This document shows, in pieces, positions 3,701 to 57,714 of a stretch of 64,000 nucleotides of DNA. A program made the position numbers and the translations under genes. The stretch is from an uncultured Bacteroidales bacterium. GTDB lineage: Bacteria; Bacteroidota; Bacteroidia; Bacteroidales; UBA10428. The notes beneath the pieces were generated by a model that saw only the letters and a program-made list of their open reading frames with translations, was not told the origin of the DNA and did no database searches. The stretch covers positions 16,999 through 80,998 of the forward strand of contig CAYWBC010000002.1 in the NCBI GenBank assembly GCA_964456285.1, read 5' to 3'. Position 1 is the stretch's first letter. Each line of letters opens with the position of its first letter.

Positions 3701-4249
3701 ATGAGCTTTAACATAAACGAATATTACACAGACATAAGTAAGGGAGATGTTCTTTTAGCCTACAAAGGAAGTATCACATCTGACTTAATTAATGAGGTAT
3801 TAGAAGCTGTTGAAGATAAGATGGAAGCTAATAAAGAAGAGGGAAAGACAAGGAAAAAGCTATACAATGTGCTTGTTGAAAGTCTCCAGAATTTATACCA
3901 TCATATTGAAGAAACACATGATGGAATAAACGAAGATCTAGATCCCAAATTTGGAATTCTTGTGGTTGAGAGAGAAAAAAATGGAGATTTTCGCGTTGTA
4001 ACCGGGAATTTTGTCGCCAATTCAAAAACTAAGTTTCTCAAAGAAAAAATTGATAAAATCAATTCATTGTCAAAAGATGAGTTGAAAGACATGTATAAAT
4101 TTATCTTAAATCATCAAAGAATCTCGGCTAAAGGTGGGGGAGGCCTGGGACTTGTTGATATTGCAAGGAAAACAGGTAAAAAAATGGTTTACAATTTCTA
4201 CCCCTACAACGATAAGTATGTATTTTTTGATTTAGCAATTCAGGTTTAA
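3701..4249 (+). CDS. SiaB-like small GHKL-type protein kinase (partner-switch kinase)
   Basis: 182 aa. Glycine-rich ATP-lid-like GGGGLGLVDIARKTG near the C-terminus. Size and pattern of the SiaB/DUF6272 family. Immediately upstream of a DUF1987 gene. Confidence 0.6.
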   Translation: MSFNINEYYTDISKGDVLLAYKGSITSDLINEVLEAVEDKMEANKEEGKTRKKLYNVLVESLQNLYHHIEETHDGINEDLDPKFGILVVEREKNGDFRVVTGNFVANSKTKFLKEKIDKINSLSKDELKDMYKFILNHQRISAKGGGGLGLVDIARKTGKKMVYNFYPYNDKYVFFDLAIQV

Positions 4250-4269
4250 TTGACTCAATATTTTTTGAT

Positions 4270-4650
4270 ATGGAATCACTGATAATAGAAGGAAGTACAA
4301 AAACACCAGATGTTAATTTCGACATCGAAAATGGTGCTTTAGAAATAAAAGGGAGATCAATTCCTGAAAATTCAATTGAGTTTTACAAACCATTGGTCGA
4401 TTGGCTGGAAGAATATGCTCAGGATCCAAAGTCTAAGACTATTGTTAATGTGCATTTGGAATATTTCAATACGAGTTCTTCTAAATGTATACTTGATGTA
4501 TTCAAAAAACTTGAAGCCATTCATAAAAACAAATACGATGTGCAGATAAACTGGTATTATGAAGAAGATGATGAAGATATGCTGGAAGCAGGGGAAGATT
4601 ATGAATCAATTATTAGAGTTCCGTTCAAAATGATTGAAATTGTAGATTAA
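4270..4650 (+). CDS. DUF1987 / SiaC-like regulatory phosphoprotein
   Basis: 126 aa. DUF1987 N-terminal pattern TPDVNFDIENGALEIKGRSIPENSIEFYKPLVDWLEEY. Thr68 within YFNTSSSK. Acidic tail. Confidence 0.7.
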   Translation: MESLIIEGSTKTPDVNFDIENGALEIKGRSIPENSIEFYKPLVDWLEEYAQDPKSKTIVNVHLEYFNTSSSKCILDVFKKLEAIHKNKYDVQINWYYEEDDEDMLEAGEDYESIIRVPFKMIEIVD

Positions 4651-4675
4651 TATAAAGAATTTGCGAAATATAAAA

Positions 4676-4704
4676 GGTTGCCTGATTAGGCAGCCTTTTT
4701 TTTT
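4676..4704 (+). terminator. rho-independent terminator after the SiaC-like gene
   Basis: Stem GGTTGCC (4676-4682) pairs with GGCAGCC (4689-4695), with one U-G wobble in the plus sense. 6-nt loop, then a 9-T run (4696-4704). Confidence 0.8.
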
Positions 4705-4839
4705 GCCCGAAAAGGAAAGATAATTTAGCCTGGGGCAGCAACTTTGTTCGAAACCATAAACTTCATGGCCCATTTAAATCAAATTCTCTTCAATAAACCA
4801 AAACTTGTGTTATTATAGCGCATATAAAATTGACACTTT

Positions 4840-5028
4840 GAAATATCATAGCAGATGCGCCATTAAAATATCGTATCCGATACCCATGGCGCTGCCATGG
4901 GCTAATTTATTATTGCCTTTCAGGCAAAAGATAAAATAAGGCTGCAAGCCTTAAATATTATAGCCTCGATCATTGGCCGGGGTATTAAGGTATAATTTCA
5001 AAATTGTCGCATCTGCCCACAATATTTC
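4840..5028. ncRNA. candidate ~190-nt structured RNA or inverted-repeat element (unclassified)
   Basis: Closing helix 4840-4846/5022-5028 (7 bp) plus 4851-4859/5008-5016 (9 bp) across a 4x5 internal loop. Encloses five hairpins: 4869-4882, 4883-4901, 4913-4927, 4938-4952, 4957-4996. No ORF >=60 aa. Confidence 0.35.
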
Positions 5029-5403
5029 GATAGTATAAATAATGTATGCGACAGGTAGCAGTAAACCTGACAAGAACAAAATATTAAGGATATCGATTTC
5101 TGAAATCTGAAATTAGTGCAATAGGATTTTTAAAAATTTAAGTTGTTTCTCATGTTTCGAACACCAGGGCACCACCAGGGTAAGAGGTTCAGAGTACCGC
5201 AATAACTATAGCTTGTATTATGTAAATTCTACAAAGGTACAGAGTACCGAAACATTGAAAAGCTCACGAGTGCCAGTTATAAATTAATATTGCAGTGCTT
5301 TGCATCTAAATTTGAACATTAAGACATCATAATTAGAGATATTATGCTGCTCTGCTACTCAATAAGAAGGGGCATAAGGAAAAAGAATTAACCTATATCA
5401 GAA

Positions 5404-5424
5404 AAGGCTGCAATTTGCAGCCTT
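5404..5424 (-). terminator. probable terminator of the ABC transporter gene
   Basis: Hairpin AAGGCTGC/GCAGCCTT (8 bp, 5-nt loop) a few nt beyond the minus-strand stop. Followed on the minus strand by only a short TTTT. Confidence 0.5.
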
Positions 5425-5427
5425 AGT

Positions 5428-8400
5428 TCATTCCTTTTTATTTAACCTTTGATTCAGGTTCTCAAACGCATCAAGTAACCTGCGCAGTCCTCTGTAATAG
5501 AGTAAAATATAGAAGAAAATACTCATTAACCAGATTACAATAGTGTTTACCCAGAATGTCGGATGATAGACTCCTAAAAATTTCTTCTGTGCCGCATAGA
5601 AATGTGCTTTGATAAAATTAGATTCCGGATCAAGATAAATAGGATCAATCTTTTGAATTAACCGACCCTTAAATTCTACAATCCTTACCGGTTCGTTACT
5701 ATTTTCAACAAATTCAGCCAACCTGTCATTGTGATAATCTCTTTTTTGCTGGATAAAGGTTTCTTTGTTCTCCGTTGATGTCTGATAGGAACGAATAATC
5801 TTATCTCTATTGTCGCTGGCTCTGTTGTATACAGTAATATAAACTCTATTTACTTTTCGAATGTACTCTTTGGTTGCGTTTATAATTTTAGCATCAATTT
5901 TATCTGGGTACAATTGATCCAGGTATTCAAATTCAATTCTATTATTTACTTTCAGTTCATCCCCGATTTCATTTCTTAATAACCTGAGGTAATTCTCAAT
6001 TTTAGCCTCATCACCATCTTTTTCCAGGTATTTATTTATATAGTCAAGTTTATTTTCAAGATTTTTAACCCAGTAGTACTTTTTGAATTCCGCAATACTC
6101 ATTACCTTGTTGATAGGGTAAAACTGGCTCATGTATTCATTTTGAGTGAATTGATAAACCGCTAAAGCTTCATAACCCCATCGGGCAGTCATAATTTCTC
6201 CGTAAAATGGAATTTTATTAGGAGACGATATGCTTGGATTCAGTTTTTCGTATTTCACAATTACACCACTAAGAATGATTTGAGGTATAACAAGAAAAGG
6301 TATTAATATGTAAATGGTTACTACTGTTTTAAAACTGTCCGATATCACTAATCCCATGAGATTGGCACTTACCCAGCAGCTAAACAATATAATCCAGTAA
6401 TGAAGATACATTCCCTTAATTTCCATTATCGAGTTCCCGACAATAACAAACAATGCAGCTTGAATTGCTGAAAGAGTGAGAAGCACCATTATTTTTGAGA
6501 TCAAATAACTCGACCAGCTTAAATTTAAGAAAGCCTCGCGCTTTAAGATCTTCCTGTCTTTTATAATTTCCTCTGCGCTTATGGTTAATCCCATAAAGAT
6601 TGCGACAATTACAGACATAAAGATGTAAACCGGCAAATTACTGTTTCCCAGCAATGTATACCCTACTTCATTCAAATCACTCTCGTTATAATACTTAATA
6701 ATAAAAGACAGAATGAAAGCCAATAAAGGAGCTTCAAGAAAATTGATTATTAAGTATTGTGAATTGGCAATCTTTGAAAGTACGTCACGCTTAACAAATA
6801 CAAGAAATTGCCGTATTTTATTTGGAATTTTGAAGGAAATATTTGGCAATTCTGTTACTTCTTTGACTTCTTCTCTCTGTTTCTTCTGTGTATGTTCAAT
6901 AAAGTACTTGTTCCATTCTTTAGGTGATTTTTTCCTTCGATGTGTGAATTTTCCATATTCATCAAGTATGTTTGATTCAACGATATTAAAAATCTGTTCA
7001 GGATTAACATTACCACAAACATTGCATTCACTCTCGTTGTAATTGGCGTAATGCGTCTTTGATTTGAAATACACAATCGAATCAATCGGATCACCATCAT
7101 AAATAAGGTATCCTCCGGTATCGAGAATCAGCAATTCATCGAACATCTTAAAAATATCTGATGAAGGTTGATGAATTACTACAAAAACAAGTTTTCCTTT
7201 TAAGGACAGTTCCTTCAACAAGTCCATGATGTTCTCAGAATCTCGTGATGACAATCCGGACGTTGGTTCATCTAGAAAAAGAACAGCTGGTTCACGAATC
7301 AGTTCCAGGGCTATATTCAGTCTTTTTCTTTGCCCTCCGCTAATCATCTTGTTCAGGGGTGAACCAACCTGAACATCTTTGATCTCAAACAATCCTAAAC
7401 TTTGCAACATCTTATCGACAGTAGCAATTAATTTTGCTTCTTTGTAGTTGCTAAAACAAAGTTTTGCATTGTAGTATAAATTCTGAAAAACAGTAAGTTC
7501 TTCAATCAGCAAATCATCTTGTGACACATAACCAATCAATCCCTCAATTTTATTCTTTTCTGTATGGATGTTTATTCCATTTACAGTAATGTTTCCTGTT
7601 GTAGGCTTTTCAGTACCATTAAGGACGTTTAGCAGGGTTGATTTGCCTGCTCCACTTGCTCCCATTATACCTACAAGTCTTCCCGAATCCTTCACAAAGC
7701 TCAAGGGTTCTAAACCCATATTGCCATTTTTAAACCGATAGCTAATATCGTTTACGCGAAATGTTATTTTGGATTCCTGTTGACCCGTATGAAATAAGGT
7801 TACTATATCGCTATAATATACCGGCCTAATGTTGTGATCGCGAATTGAGGAGCCTGAATTGAAAACAAAAACTTTAAAAGGTTGAAGTAGCTGGCCATTC
7901 AAATACAATTCATGATTCCCAAGATACCTTAATAGGTATATATTGGCAGTTGTAGCTTTTAATAACCAAAGCTCGCCTTTGAAATGCTTCGAATATAAGT
8001 GCTTGCTTATCGGGTTAGCTTTTTCATCCTGATTTTCATCAATAATGAGAATATTTTCAGACTGCGGTGCATTTCCGACCTCTTTTATTGTGAAATCACG
8101 AATCAAATCATGTTCTTCAGTATCAACATTGAATGAATCGGCAACTGTTTGTATAAATTCAAACTCCTGTTTTGAAATTTCTGCAGCATCTGAATCAGCA
8201 AACTCAAACAAGTGAATTACAACAATTAATTTTTGTTTTTGTGTAAGTTCCTTATTGATCTGATCGCAAATTCTGAGAATCTTCACTGAATCAGGACCAA
8301 TTCGTTTTACTCCTCTGGAATTTACAAGGCTTTGATGTCGTGCAAAAAATCTGTCGAAAATCTCAAGATAACCCTCAACGAGTTCCTGATTTAGTATACG

Positions 8401-8514
8401 ACCTAAATAGGACTCAACAACAGTACGCCTGTCGCTTCCATCAGTATTGTATTCATCGGGCCTCGCAATAATTGCGAAAAGCTCCATGAGGGCTTGTAAA
8501 ATTTGTTCACTCAT
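5428..8514 (-). CDS. ABCG-type ABC transporter, fused ATPase-permease with ~270-aa N-terminal regulatory region and ~250-aa C-terminal extension
   Basis: Walker A GASGAGKST, signature ISGGQRKR, Walker B LFLDEPTSGL. ABC-2-type 6-TM domain. Extra C-terminal soluble region plus a final TM. N-terminal region is TerB-like and weakly FHA-like by eye. Confidence 0.85.
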   Translation of the reverse strand: MSEQILQALMELFAIIARPDEYNTDGSDRRTVVESYLGRILNQELVEGYLEIFDRFFARHQSLVNSRGVKRIGPDSVKILRICDQINKELTQKQKLIVVIHLFEFADSDAAEISKQEFEFIQTVADSFNVDTEEHDLIRDFTIKEVGNAPQSENILIIDENQDEKANPISKHLYSKHFKGELWLLKATTANIYLLRYLGNHELYLNGQLLQPFKVFVFNSGSSIRDHNIRPVYYSDIVTLFHTGQQESKITFRVNDISYRFKNGNMGLEPLSFVKDSGRLVGIMGASGAGKSTLLNVLNGTEKPTTGNITVNGINIHTEKNKIEGLIGYVSQDDLLIEELTVFQNLYYNAKLCFSNYKEAKLIATVDKMLQSLGLFEIKDVQVGSPLNKMISGGQRKRLNIALELIREPAVLFLDEPTSGLSSRDSENIMDLLKELSLKGKLVFVVIHQPSSDIFKMFDELLILDTGGYLIYDGDPIDSIVYFKSKTHYANYNESECNVCGNVNPEQIFNIVESNILDEYGKFTHRRKKSPKEWNKYFIEHTQKKQREEVKEVTELPNISFKIPNKIRQFLVFVKRDVLSKIANSQYLIINFLEAPLLAFILSFIIKYYNESDLNEVGYTLLGNSNLPVYIFMSVIVAIFMGLTISAEEIIKDRKILKREAFLNLSWSSYLISKIMVLLTLSAIQAALFVIVGNSIMEIKGMYLHYWIILFSCWVSANLMGLVISDSFKTVVTIYILIPFLVIPQIILSGVIVKYEKLNPSISSPNKIPFYGEIMTARWGYEALAVYQFTQNEYMSQFYPINKVMSIAEFKKYYWVKNLENKLDYINKYLEKDGDEAKIENYLRLLRNEIGDELKVNNRIEFEYLDQLYPDKIDAKIINATKEYIRKVNRVYITVYNRASDNRDKIIRSYQTSTENKETFIQQKRDYHNDRLAEFVENSNEPVRIVEFKGRLIQKIDPIYLDPESNFIKAHFYAAQKKFLGVYHPTFWVNTIVIWLMSIFFYILLYYRGLRRLLDAFENLNQRLNKKE

Positions 8515-54221: not shown

Positions 54222-55841
54222 ATGAAAAATTTATTTAAAGTAAAATACATATTAGTAGCTGCATTGGCATTCATAGTCTTGTCATGCGGTGAAGACTGGT
54301 TAGAAACTGAACCGCAGGGTTTGGTTCTTGAATCGAATTTTTATCAGACTGAAGACGATGCATTTGCTGCACTAACAGCTGCTTATGATCCTTTGGAATG
54401 GGACTATATGAGTGGTCTTGACGGTGCATATAATCCATTCTTTATGATCATGAATATTTCTTCCGATGATACGGAGAAAGGAGGAGATACTCCTACTGAT
54501 CAGGCCAATATGGAACAGTTTAATGATTATAATCTAAATCCTGATAATGAGATGATCCGGGGTTTATGGGTTAAATATGCCAGAGGGATTTATCGTTGTA
54601 ACCTGGTTCTTGAAAATACCTCTGATGGTTTTAGCACTGCAGCCACAATTAAAGCTGAAGCACAAACTTTAAGGGCTTATTATTTCTTTGATGCTGTTCG
54701 AATATGGGGGGACTATCCATTACTTGATCATGTATTAGGTCCAGACGAGTATTATTCAACAGGAAGAGCTCCGAAAAGAGAAATATTTGATTTGATAGTG
54801 AATGACTTAAAAGCCGCAATTAGTTCAGGAGCACTTAAAAGATTAACTCAGGTTCCGGGAGGACGTGTTACTTTAGGTACTGCACATGCTCTTCTAGGGA
54901 AAGTATATCTGTATATGGCCTCTCCATATTATGCATATAGCGATGAGGACTACTACCAATTGGCAGCAAATGAATTTGCATCGGTCATACAATTGGGCGA
55001 TTATGAATTAATTGATAATTATGCCGATGTAAATGATCCACGCCTGGGACAGAATACCAACGAAGCTGTATTTGAAATTCAACACAGTGCTCGCTCAGAA
55101 TGGAGTGATTGGAATTATGCTACTCCGGGAGAGGGTAACTTTACAGCTACTATGAGCGGTATCAGAACAGGTGGAACTCTCGGCCATCCTATATATAGCA
55201 ATGGATGGTGTTTTAATTTACCAAATCAGAACAATGTAGATGCTTACATTGCAATGGAAGATGATATTAGATTCAGCGCTAACATTATTACCAGCTTTCC
55301 TGTTGAGGTGGGTGGTGTGACAATACCTTCCGATTTGGGTGTTGCTACTGATACCTCAGGACGCGATGTGACCACTGATATCGGCGTTAATTTTGCTATG
55401 GGATATCAACATACTGGCTATTGGGTGAAGAAGTATGCCATTTATGCTGAATTAATTCCAAGTGTTGGTGATCAGTTCAATAATAATCCCAATAACATGG
55501 TTGCAATACGTTATTCTGATGTATTGCTTATGCATGCTGAAGCATTGGTAAGTGGGGCTTCCGATCCATTAGGTGCAACAGCAGTTGATTATGTAAATGA
55601 GGTTCGTGATCGTGTAGATCTTGATCTGCTAAGTTCAGTTGATCTGGATGCTATCCTGGCTGAAAGACGATTGGAATTGGATCACATGGGACATCGATGG
55701 TTTGATATGGTTCGATTGAATCGCGCAGTTACAGTTTTTGGACCACAAGGTTTTACTGTTGGTCATGAAGTATTTCCAATTCCCCGACAGGAGATTGATA
55801 ATACCAGGGGAGCCCTTGAACAAAATGAGGCGTATAAATAG
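54222..55841 (+). CDS. susD: SusD/RagB-family glycan-binding lipoprotein
   Basis: Lipobox VLSCGEDW. 11-nt gap after susC. SusD-like TPR-rich helical core, C-terminal R.ELD..GHRWFD..R. Confidence 0.9.
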   Translation: MKNLFKVKYILVAALAFIVLSCGEDWLETEPQGLVLESNFYQTEDDAFAALTAAYDPLEWDYMSGLDGAYNPFFMIMNISSDDTEKGGDTPTDQANMEQFNDYNLNPDNEMIRGLWVKYARGIYRCNLVLENTSDGFSTAATIKAEAQTLRAYYFFDAVRIWGDYPLLDHVLGPDEYYSTGRAPKREIFDLIVNDLKAAISSGALKRLTQVPGGRVTLGTAHALLGKVYLYMASPYYAYSDEDYYQLAANEFASVIQLGDYELIDNYADVNDPRLGQNTNEAVFEIQHSARSEWSDWNYATPGEGNFTATMSGIRTGGTLGHPIYSNGWCFNLPNQNNVDAYIAMEDDIRFSANIITSFPVEVGGVTIPSDLGVATDTSGRDVTTDIGVNFAMGYQHTGYWVKKYAIYAELIPSVGDQFNNNPNNMVAIRYSDVLLMHAEALVSGASDPLGATAVDYVNEVRDRVDLDLLSSVDLDAILAERRLELDHMGHRWFDMVRLNRAVTVFGPQGFTVGHEVFPIPRQEIDNTRGALEQNEAYK

Positions 55842-55916
55842 TCAAATCAATAATATGATTGCTGATTATAAAAATGCCTGATTATAAATTAGCGATAATA
55901 ATAAGATTTAAGATCA

Positions 55917-55959
55917 AGATTCCTGATTCGGGTAAGCATGTGGCTTACCTGAATAAGGA
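55917..55959 (+). other. long imperfect hairpin between susD and the MFS gene (terminator/attenuator candidate)
   Basis: ATTCCTGATTCGGGTAAGC / GCTTACCTGAATAAGGAAT: perfect 7-bp core GGTAAGC/GCTTACC, 5-nt loop, 10 of 12 outer positions pair. No strong T run. Confidence 0.4.
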
Positions 55960-56148
55960 ATTTACTTAAAAATTATTTGAATAAAATAATAGTGGTATGA
56001 ACTTGTTCATTTGAATTCAATTGAAAATTAAATGATATTAATATCCAGTTAGATGATTGTAATATAGAATCCGGTAATTTAAAAGTCTGGATCGAAGGCA
56101 GATAAATAACCGATTTGGAATATATTTTAGTATTAAATAACTGATTAC

Positions 56149-57714
56149 ATGAAAAATAATAACTCACTCTTTCATTCCTTTCTAATAGTTTTCATCGTAG
56201 CACTTGGTGGATTCTTAATGGGTTTTGATGCATCAGTAATTTCTGGTGTTGTAGAGTTTATTGGGCCGCAATTCGAATTAACAAAACTAGAATTGGGTTG
56301 GGCAGTCAGTTGCCTGACATTAACAGCTACACTGGCCATGATCATTTCCGGACCCATCTCTGATAGAATAGGTAGAAAACTGGTTTTAAAATATGCGGCA
56401 ATATTGTATTTTATTTCGGCAGTGTTTTCTGCGCTTGCTCCTTCATTTATAAGTCTTGTTATTGCTCGTATGATTGGAGGAATTGGCGTTGGAGCCTCAC
56501 TGATAATTGCACCCATGTATATAGCTGAAATTGCTCCTCCAAGGCTTCGGGGAAGGATGGTTTCTTTTAATCAGTTGAATATTGTTATAGGTATTTCCGT
56601 TGCATTTTTCACAAACTATTTAATACTTCAATTGGGAAAATCTGATGCCGGCTGGGCAAAATCTCTAATGTTTGAAGCCTATAACTGGCGATGGATGTTA
56701 GGATTGGAGGCACTTCCTGCTATTTTGTACTTCTTCTTTTTATTCATTGTACCAGAAAGTCCAAGATGGTTGGCAATGAAAGGTTTTGAAGACAGGGCGC
56801 TGGATATTATGATTAAAATGAGTAGTGAAGAACAAGCCAGGAAGGAATACAAGGAAATTAAAGCCAGCATATCAAGTAATACTAAGAAAGAGAAAGTTTC
56901 AATTGCTGAACTATTCAAACCAGCTATGAAACTTGTTCTTACCATTGGTATCGTGATAGCGATCCTGCAACAAATTACAGGTATCAATGCTGTTTTCTTT
57001 TATGCACCTATGATATTCAAGCAGACGGGAATAGGAACAGATGCTTCTTTTGTTCAGGCTATAATAGTAGGTTTAACAAATTTAATTTTTACAGTTGTTG
57101 CCATTTTATTTGTTGATCGCCTGGGGAGAAAACCTTTGCTTGCCTTTGGTGTTTCAGGCATTGTTATTTGTATGTTTCTTTTGGCATATTCTTTCAATAC
57201 GGCTACCTACGAGCTATCTGTTGAATCTGTTTCAAATCTTTCTGAAATTACTGATCTGGCCGTAATTGGCCAGTTGCAGGGACAAACATTCACTTCTGAT
57301 ATTGCTTTTAAGGATGCACTTATACAAGTTTTAGGGGACAATGTAGCCAGCGAACATCAGGGAGAAATAATTGCACAGGCAATAAGCATTAATCCATGGC
57401 TTGTTCTGATCGGTATTATTGGATTTGTTGCTTCATTTGCTGTTTCTTTGGGACCGGTAATGTGGATTCTCTTTTCAGAACTATTTCCAAATCGTTTAAG
57501 AGGTCTTGCTATTTCCCTGGCAGGATTTGTGAATTCAGGGATAAGCTTCACAGTTCAGCTTATGTTTCCATGGGAACTTTCAAATATTGGCAATGCCGGA
57601 ACATTCCTGATTTATGGAATATTTGGTCTGGCAGGTCTTATTTTCATACTTATTTATCTTCCTGAAACAAAGGGTAAATCACTGGAGGAACTGGAAAAAG
57701 TATTAATTAGTTAA
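56149..57714 (+). CDS. MFS sugar porter (sugar:H+ symporter family)
   Basis: 12-TM layout. GRK motifs, PESPRWL, PETKGKSLEELE. ~65-aa soluble insertion (ELSVESVSNL...AISINP) in the C-terminal half. Confidence 0.9.
   Translation: MKNNNSLFHSFLIVFIVALGGFLMGFDASVISGVVEFIGPQFELTKLELGWAVSCLTLTATLAMIISGPISDRIGRKLVLKYAAILYFISAVFSALAPSFISLVIARMIGGIGVGASLIIAPMYIAEIAPPRLRGRMVSFNQLNIVIGISVAFFTNYLILQLGKSDAGWAKSLMFEAYNWRWMLGLEALPAILYFFFLFIVPESPRWLAMKGFEDRALDIMIKMSSEEQARKEYKEIKASISSNTKKEKVSIAELFKPAMKLVLTIGIVIAILQQITGINAVFFYAPMIFKQTGIGTDASFVQAIIVGLTNLIFTVVAILFVDRLGRKPLLAFGVSGIVICMFLLAYSFNTATYELSVESVSNLSEITDLAVIGQLQGQTFTSDIAFKDALIQVLGDNVASEHQGEIIAQAISINPWLVLIGIIGFVASFAVSLGPVMWILFSELFPNRLRGLAISLAGFVNSGISFTVQLMFPWELSNIGNAGTFLIYGIFGLAGLIFILIYLPETKGKSLEELEKVLIS

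Follow-up and report, generated by a model that had tools for sequence, protein, structure and literature searches.

The region described here belongs to a 64-kb stretch of DNA that was analysed as a whole and is referred to below as the window. It forms the spacer between two convergent genes. On its left, a DUF6272 gene precedes a SiaC-family gene, the pair spanning positions 3701-4650, and on its right lies an ABC transporter gene encoding 1028 amino acids, with a C-terminus that is intact when compared with that of the relative L002. Homologues are annotated as uncultured Bacteroidales MAGs. The features on which the analysis rests are the following.

4270-4650, plus strand: SiaC-family gene, left flank (Pfam PF09345, E 3.3e-46).
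4672-4704, both strands: ancestral bidirectional terminator with a 12-bp stem and a T-run (terminator scan; aligns with the single spacer hairpin of L002, L003 and L004).
4705-5427, strand not applicable: lineage-specific, ORF-free insertion of 723 nt, missing from all syntenic relatives.
4869-4882, 4883-4901, 4913-4927, 4938-4952 and 4957-4996: five hairpins enclosed by a closing helix, all located by reading the sequence.
4883-4927, plus strand: two-hairpin module like Acido-Lenti-1 (RF01687), below threshold (cmscan 27.2 bits, E 5.7e-4).
4937-4953, minus strand: internal terminator-like hairpin of 7 bp followed by UUUUAUCUUUU (terminator scan; arm AAGGCTGC).
5185-5202 and 5235-5252: a direct repeat, AGGT(T/A)CAGAGTACCG, present twice at a distance of 50 nt; both copies form a small GGTNC-AGA-GTACC hairpin (repeat search).
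5404-5424, minus strand: terminator of the ABC gene within the insert, AAGGCTGCA-ATT-TGCAGCCTT and then UUUUCUGAU (perfect 10-nt inverted arms and sequence reading).
5428-8514, minus strand: ABC transporter gene, right flank, an ATPase with fused ABC-2 permease and a TerB-like N-terminus (Pfam, homologues and C-terminal comparison with L002).

Boundaries and content of the insertion

The SiaC and ABC genes are convergent in 89 related syntenic loci, with ~50-100 nt, one bidirectional terminator, between them. Their stop codons are 50-53 nt apart in L002 and L003 (ABC 88% at the amino acid level), in L004 (84%) and in one relative at 79%, and in L002, L003 and L004 this short spacer is a single bidirectional terminator hairpin, and its T-run overlaps with the stop codon of the ABC gene. 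Across 43 metagenome loci with the same convergent pair the spacer has a median length of 79 nt (range 7-168, with one outlier of 435 nt), and across 46 loci from species-representative genomes one of 75 nt, with a maximum of 493 nt. As a separate observation, the DUF6272 and SiaC pair is kept convergent to a TerB-like/ABC/ABC-2 fusion transporter in ~90 Bacteroidales loci (L021-L126), a conserved pairing that may point to a functional connection of the transporter with a SiaB/SiaC-like phospho-switch.

In the window, 723 nt (4705-5427) sit exactly between the ancestral SiaC terminator and the ABC stop codon. The terminator at 4672-4704 still adjoins the SiaC gene and is the last sequence that the window has in common with its relatives, in which the ABC stop codon abuts this shared terminator. 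Searches with blastn and nhmmer found nothing similar to 4705-5427 in any of the 89 syntenic loci. This is the presence/absence pattern of a mobile insertion, with 89 loci that lack the insert and an empty site in which the terminator abuts the ABC stop codon. A JGI contig (L001) is 100% identical to the window over 4054-5177, so that a separate assembly also contains the left junction and the fold described below. These comparisons establish that there is an insertion, where exactly it is bounded and that it is restricted to one lineage.

The closest relatives by nucleotide identity are the two short contigs L127 and L128. Over 4024-4705 their identity with the window is 91.7% and 90.5%, as compared with only 83-86% for L002, L070 and L072. 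Similarity to the window stops at 4705 in L127 and at 4702 in L128, which is the end of the T-run of the SiaC terminator. Beyond it, both carry AT-rich DNA unrelated to the window (670-1045 in L127, 699-778 in L128). Past the T-run the two contigs have only ~30 nt in common with each other, and the sole stretch that L127 shares with the window is the 11-mer TGTTCGAAACC, at a similar offset. Neither spacer contains an Acido-Lenti-like module, and both show only moderate structure (z -2.3 and -2.6). An ORF fragment of 33 amino acids at the end of L127 has no homologue that we could find and may be spurious. Because the close relatives diverge right where the T-run ends, the junction 3′ of the terminator is hypervariable. 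In another lineage, represented by the related Bacteroidota genomes L059 and L099, the same ABC/SiaC junction is filled by an unrelated palindromic repeat of ~70 nt:

L059 1756-1825, L099 3960-4027 and, in part and at another position, L111 592-624: palindromic repeat GGGATTGCAGGTCGGGACC...GCAATCCC, -31.4 kcal/mol.

This repeat is probably a dispersed REP- or MITE-like element.

The insert has a GC content of 0.35-0.37, which is the coding level, as compared with 0.20-0.27 in a neighbouring native intergenic region, and it lacks a coding signal. The spacer had been described as free of ORFs of at least 60 amino acids, and this is correct; the longest ORF inside the insert has 44. Pfam searches of its six frames came back empty, and the six reading frames, joined and compared with 5.8 billion proteins (clusters), gave nothing at E values up to 10. 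The best codon log-likelihood of the insert is 8.8; shuffles give 7.3 +/- 2.8 and real genes 14 +/- 6. A decayed gene was considered and rejected on the strength of the empty Pfam search, the lack of a protein homologue in six frames and the shuffle-level codon log-likelihood; the absence of a coding signal is established. Among the short frames, an ORF of 42 amino acids at 5079-4951 on the minus strand has a hydrophobic N-terminal stretch, and its stop codon overlaps the terminator-like hairpin 4953-4937, which raises the idea of a type I toxin-antitoxin-like locus with a putative small membrane toxin and a highly folded mRNA. We consider this very improbable. The ORF starts at TTG, frames of such size are common by chance in AT-rich DNA, and the search returned 0 homologues among 1.84 billion representative proteins or 5.8 billion clusters, with a codon score at the level of shuffles.

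Known RNAs and repeats were likewise not encountered. The first-pass annotation had not recognised the structure as 6S, SRP, tmRNA, RNase P or a known riboswitch. In Rfam, no family reaches its gathering score anywhere in the 64-kb window; in E-value mode, the matches other than Acido-Lenti-1 are generic terminator look-alikes confined to 4640-4706. The region holds no tRNA or tmRNA gene or fragment. The insert has no match in plasmid and phage collections and none in 743 kb of relatives' DNA (nhmmer, blastn). A covariance model of the fold (R1) retrieves only itself in the window and nothing at E <1 in 548 kb of relatives' DNA, and neither blastn nor the covariance model finds a second copy within the 64 kb. 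A 23-mer from the left arm had 0 matches in viral contigs, and an R/Y-degenerate 44-nt pattern of the best module had 0 matches in 185,579 species genomes, a collection that does not include the source species. Sixteen viral contig matches to GGCTAATTTATNNNNGCCTTT were set aside as chance, as none came with hairpins.

Stability of the fold at 4838-5030

The core of the insertion is a fold at 4838-5030, for which the first-pass annotation had listed individual stems. Direct reading of the sequence placed every one of them at exactly the coordinates given. The outer stem of the closing helix pairs GAAATAT (4840-4846) with ATATTTC (5022-5028), and the inner stem pairs GCAGATGCG (4851-4859) with CGCATCTGC (5008-5016), the two being separated by a 4x5 internal loop (4847-4850 / 5017-5021). 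RNAfold returned the same closed multi-branch architecture that had been claimed. The fifth hairpin (4957-4996) is the one place where the two differ: the pairing ATTATA(g)CC/GGTATAAT exists, but the minimum free energy structure favours GCCUCG/CGGGGU (4963-4968/4978-4983) in its stead.

On the plus strand, 4838-5030 folds at -63.2 kcal/mol (z -4.62), and 0 of 200 dinucleotide shuffles were as good; on the minus strand the energy is -67.2 kcal/mol (z -5.32 against shuffles). The mean pair probability of the minimum free energy pairs is 0.85-0.88. In the minus sense the closing stem is longer, at 29 bp (12+8+2+7 bp) with 6 G.U pairs, as compared with 4 G.U pairs in the plus sense. Because the spot had originally been picked out of 64 kb, we folded 3191 overlapping 193-nt windows across the whole stretch on both strands and regressed energy on GC. 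The fold ranked first of 3191 on the minus strand (residual z -4.56) and seventh on the plus strand, where only a region at 55.8 kb and one window near 63.7 kb ranked higher. By this ranking the observation is genuine and more than chance would give, and the fold is shown to be stable.

Taken by itself, the closing helix barely exceeds chance, as perfect inverted repeats of 9 bp are expected about once per 780 nt. The best local inverted self-alignments are not better than those of shuffles. The exceptional feature is the succession of perfect hairpins with short loops, combined with long-range closure. An outer inverted repeat (4725-4754/5154-5183) pairs in both whole-insert folds, with 70% complementarity, and is not significant alone. 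A long palindrome or inverted duplication at 4669-4962 (nhmmer E ~1e-7) was rejected, as its self-alignment does not rise above dinucleotide shuffles (p = 0.065).

Elsewhere in the window, a second strongly structured, AT-rich intergenic region lies at 55790-56110 on the plus strand, between the ORFs 54222-55841 and 56149-57714. It folds at -78.2 kcal/mol (z -5.66) and is dominated by a long perfect hairpin at ~55915-55965. It has no similarity to the 723-nt insert and no Rfam match at gathering score.

Terminators and transcription signals

Each of the two convergent genes had been credited with its own terminator, and both are present, 4672-4704 for SiaC and 5404-5424 for the ABC gene. Inside the insert, the hairpin at 4937-4953 is terminator-like on the minus strand and the inner hairpin 4883-4901 passes the scan on the plus strand. 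Altogether the terminator scan found four terminator-like hairpins where 1.0 was expected. The arm AAGGCTGC is common to the three hairpins at 4672-4699, 4937-4953 and 5404-5424. As an 8-mer it occurs at 4690-4697, 4938-4945, 5404-5411 and 5417-5424, which makes four of its six occurrences in the window fall in the spacer, with 1.3 expected per 64 kb, and the terminators of L127 and L128 carry the same arm. Judged by this repetition of sequence, the spacer hairpins appear to be related to the local terminator. The two flanking terminators also both contain AAAAGG(Y)TGC...GCAGCCTT, a loose resemblance only.

A further detail of the old terminator is that the 3′ arm of 4672-4699 differs by an A-to-G change from the more distant relatives L002 and L004. 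The change gives a T.G wobble in the plus sense and a C.A mismatch in the minus sense. The mismatch looks as if the ABC gene now relied on the new hairpin, with the old one needed only for SiaC.

These hairpins resemble intrinsic terminators in that 4672-4704 and 5424-5404 both have GC-rich stems followed by T/U runs. They also resemble the terminator stacks found between convergent genes, as the inner hairpins at 4883-4901 (plus) and 4953-4937 (minus) are terminator-like and the insert provides the terminator of the ABC gene. However, terminator stacks leave the long-range closing helix and the other 500 nt of the insert unexplained, and they do not account for an insert of 723 nt where relatives need only ~50 nt. 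One could then ask whether the insert is the neutral remains of a decayed or deleted gene cassette, made up of old untranslated 5′ and 3′ DNA and stacked terminators, with a fortuitous closure of the fold. Convergent terminator-like hairpins inside the insert, three hairpins with the local terminator arm, a closing helix that is near chance expectation when taken alone and the presence of other, unrelated DNA at the same place in close relatives would all agree with such leftovers. We nevertheless regard this as rather unlikely, given that no frame shows protein homology, no residual codon signal is present and the fold is first of 3191 windows.

The first-pass annotation had favoured a dedicated structured RNA, and the results do not bear this out. 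The region is absent from 89 syntenic relatives and so offers neither conservation nor covariation; the closest relatives, L127 and L128, diverge at its left edge; no Rfam family matches at gathering score; and no pair of promoter and terminator frames the closed fold on either strand, as judged from motif and terminator scans. The fold is not conserved in any collection searched and hence has no homologues in which covariation could appear, an outcome that the annotation itself had named as speaking against its proposal. TAnnTTTG, the Bacteroidetes -7 motif, is found at two places in the insert (5239-5232, minus strand; 5307-5314, plus strand). Over the window as a whole it does not exceed chance density, with 68 occurrences against 87 expected. 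The minus-strand occurrence, TACCTTTG at 5239-5232, lies upstream of the fold. The terminator scan found no terminator after the end of the fold in either sense, and terminator-like hairpins interrupt it, 4953-4937 with its U-tail midway through the minus-strand fold and 4883-4901 on the plus strand. With terminator-like hairpins inside the fold, no terminator after it and motifs at chance level, the region has the look of stacked convergent terminator-like hairpins more than that of a single transcription unit.

An orphan small RNA gene is therefore a doubtful reading, though one that we take seriously. Here the island would be horizontally acquired or newly arisen and its ~190-nt fold would be a functional RNA, either trans-acting or derived from a 3′ UTR. 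The minus strand would be the likelier sense, as it is the strand of the ABC gene and its closing stem is longer and richer in G.U pairs. Several features are consistent with this reading: both strands are exceptionally stable, with high pair probabilities; the minus-sense stem has 29 bp; the TACCTTTG motif lies upstream; GC is at coding level in an AT-rich genome; and an Rfam sRNA motif (Acido-Lenti-1) matches below threshold. Set against these are the lack of conservation in any collection searched, the chance density of the -7 motif, the hairpin and U-tail in the middle of the minus-sense fold, the missing terminator after it in either sense and the failure of any known family to reach threshold. 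The insert shares with the intergenic sRNAs of Bacteroides (for example GibS, the FopS family and the BTnc RNAs; Rfam 15) a Bacteroidales host, an intergenic position, richness in hairpins and a comparable size. It differs from them in that Rfam matches to those families fall only on the generic SiaC terminator, far below threshold, and in that its fold has neither conservation nor a convincing frame of promoter and terminator.

Acido-Lenti-1 resemblance and origin of the insert

The one suggestive Rfam match concerns the hairpins at 4883-4927. Their score of 27.2 bits falls below the Acido-Lenti-1 gathering score of 37 bits, and the E value of 5.7e-4 applies to a scan of 881 nt, scaling to ~0.04 for the whole window. 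The cmscan alignment covers the full model (positions 1-46). The architecture is that of Acido-Lenti-1, with two hairpins of 8 bp and 5 bp and an AU-rich linker of ~12 nt that starts with GCUA and contains UAU. The linker sequence GGCUAAUUUAU agrees fully with the consensus and with several published members, the UUC loop of the second hairpin also matches, and the module sits, as in Acido-Lenti-1, among short GC-rich intergenic hairpins. However, hairpin 1 has a 3-nt GCU loop in place of the conserved C-UNAC-G, and UU stands before hairpin 2 where the family has a conserved CG. There is no good further copy in the 64 kb, the sole other match scoring 14.2 bits on the minus strand.

Lentisphaerae, Acidobacteria and marine metagenomes contribute the 89 members of the published Acido-Lenti-1 alignment (Weinberg et al. 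2010, PMC2864571). They occur many per genome, often in tandem, within hairpin-rich intergenic units, and have no assigned function (PMC2864571). In Lentisphaera araneosa the members form regular tandem arrays with periods of 74, 110-115 and ~192-200 nt (PMC2864571, supplementary files 183 and 61); tandem arrays suggest that the motif is part of a repeat element as opposed to a stand-alone sRNA. A preprint mentions Acido-Lenti-1 matches in Tannerella, a genus of Bacteroidales. The module studied here is solitary, whereas known members are multi-copy, often tandem and described from other phyla. Because it is below the gathering score, lacks the conserved loop and CG, and stands alone, we do not file it as a member, although it behaves like that class of hairpin-cluster repeats and may be distantly akin to it. 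That the insert is a distant, solitary member of the Acido-Lenti-1 class of such repeats, a reading that overlaps with our preferred one, we judge unlikely: full-length coverage, the identical linker, the UUC loop, the abundance of known members in hairpin-rich units and the Tannerella matches speak for it, and the sub-threshold score, the window-scaled E value, the unconserved loop and CG and the lack of a tandem or second good copy speak against it.

As a fallback, the first-pass annotation had offered a small non-autonomous inverted-repeat element. This comes nearer to the reading that we favour, except that the inserted unit is 723 nt (4705-5427) and not 190 nt. No target-site duplication had been seen, and we found none flanking 4705/5427, 4838/5030 or 4820/5050. 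The ends of the insert, GCCCGAAAAGG... and ...GCAGCCTTAGT, are not the inverted repeats that delimit a MITE, and the 16-bp interrupted inverted repeat (4840-4859/5008-5028) is internal to the insert and not at its ends. The search for further copies that a MITE would be expected to leave covered the 64-kb window, 0.55-0.74 Mb of relatives' DNA and, for the 44-nt R/Y pattern, 185,579 species genomes, and returned no second copy. Nor is the insert linked to any mobility gene, such as a transposase or integrase. The direct repeats at 5185-5202 and 5235-5252 could be protein-binding sites, for example of the arm type used by a recombinase, or a chance pair.

Compared with MITEs and with REP/BIME, BOX-, ERIC- and Correia-type elements (see also PMC11602168), the insert is similar in being ORF-free, strongly self-complementary and extragenic beside terminators, in being present in one lineage with "empty sites" in relatives, and in having another palindromic repeat at the same junction elsewhere. 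It differs in the lack of terminal inverted repeats, a target-site duplication and a repeated palindromic unit, and in being single as far as the window and 0.55-0.74 Mb of relatives' DNA show; 723 nt is also large for a MITE. REP and BIME elements consist of one palindromic unit in alternating orientation, whereas the five hairpins here have unrelated stems.

Our preferred explanation, which we hold tentatively and with somewhat less than even confidence, is that the 723-nt insert consists of foreign or mobile non-coding DNA, specific to this lineage and placed at a variable junction beside a terminator, and that it now supplies the terminator of the ABC gene. The empty sites, the sharp breakpoint, the failure to find relatives by any route, the lack of a coding relic and the excess of terminator-like hairpins all point this way, as do the palindromic repeat at the junction in L059 and L099, coding-level GC, the shared arm AAGGCTGC and the lack of a promoter and terminator frame. 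Counted against it are the lack of terminal inverted repeats, a target-site duplication, a mobility gene or a second copy in 64 kb. Both the foreign or mobile origin and the role as terminator or insulator are what we infer from this pattern.

We hypothesize that, in this lineage only, 723 nt of DNA entered directly 3′ of the conserved bidirectional terminator, or replaced what lay there. The insert could be a non-autonomous element in single copy, or else what remains of a larger integration or replacement. Stacked hairpins with a likeness to terminators or REP elements make up most of it, and its base-pairing would have been brought along with the foreign DNA as opposed to being selected as a dedicated RNA. 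Its present effect would most probably be passive, keeping two convergent genes apart. It would give the ABC gene a new terminator (5424-5404), and the further hairpins at 4883-4901 (plus) and 4953-4937 (minus) would meet read-through from both sides.

Two observations sit less easily with this explanation. The stability of the fold (first of 3191) and its well-defined ensemble exceed what a random insertion needs and would fit a functional RNA, and the sub-threshold Acido-Lenti-1 match hints at a recurrent RNA-like module. A bolder proposal is that the insert represents a new type of mobile cassette, non-coding and directed to the 3′ side of intrinsic terminators, with a ~190-nt multi-branch RNA distantly related to Acido-Lenti-1 as its cargo. 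We think this improbable. If true, it would be the first clue placing the orphan Acido-Lenti-1 class among terminator-targeting, hairpin-cluster mobile elements that express structured RNA.

If our preferred explanation is right, the event itself is an ordinary one, in which strain- or lineage-specific non-coding DNA became lodged beside a terminator. Its chief worth is then that of a caution, as the fold that ranks first in 64 kb on the minus strand shows no conservation at all. Because three close relatives have three different sequences at this place and another lineage has a palindromic repeat, the ABC/SiaC junction would be marked as a recurrent landing or replacement site in uncultured Bacteroidales. 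If transcription of the fold, or further copies of the unit, came to light, this would be a new hairpin-cluster element, possibly one that ties the unexplained Acido-Lenti-1 motif to mobile DNA.
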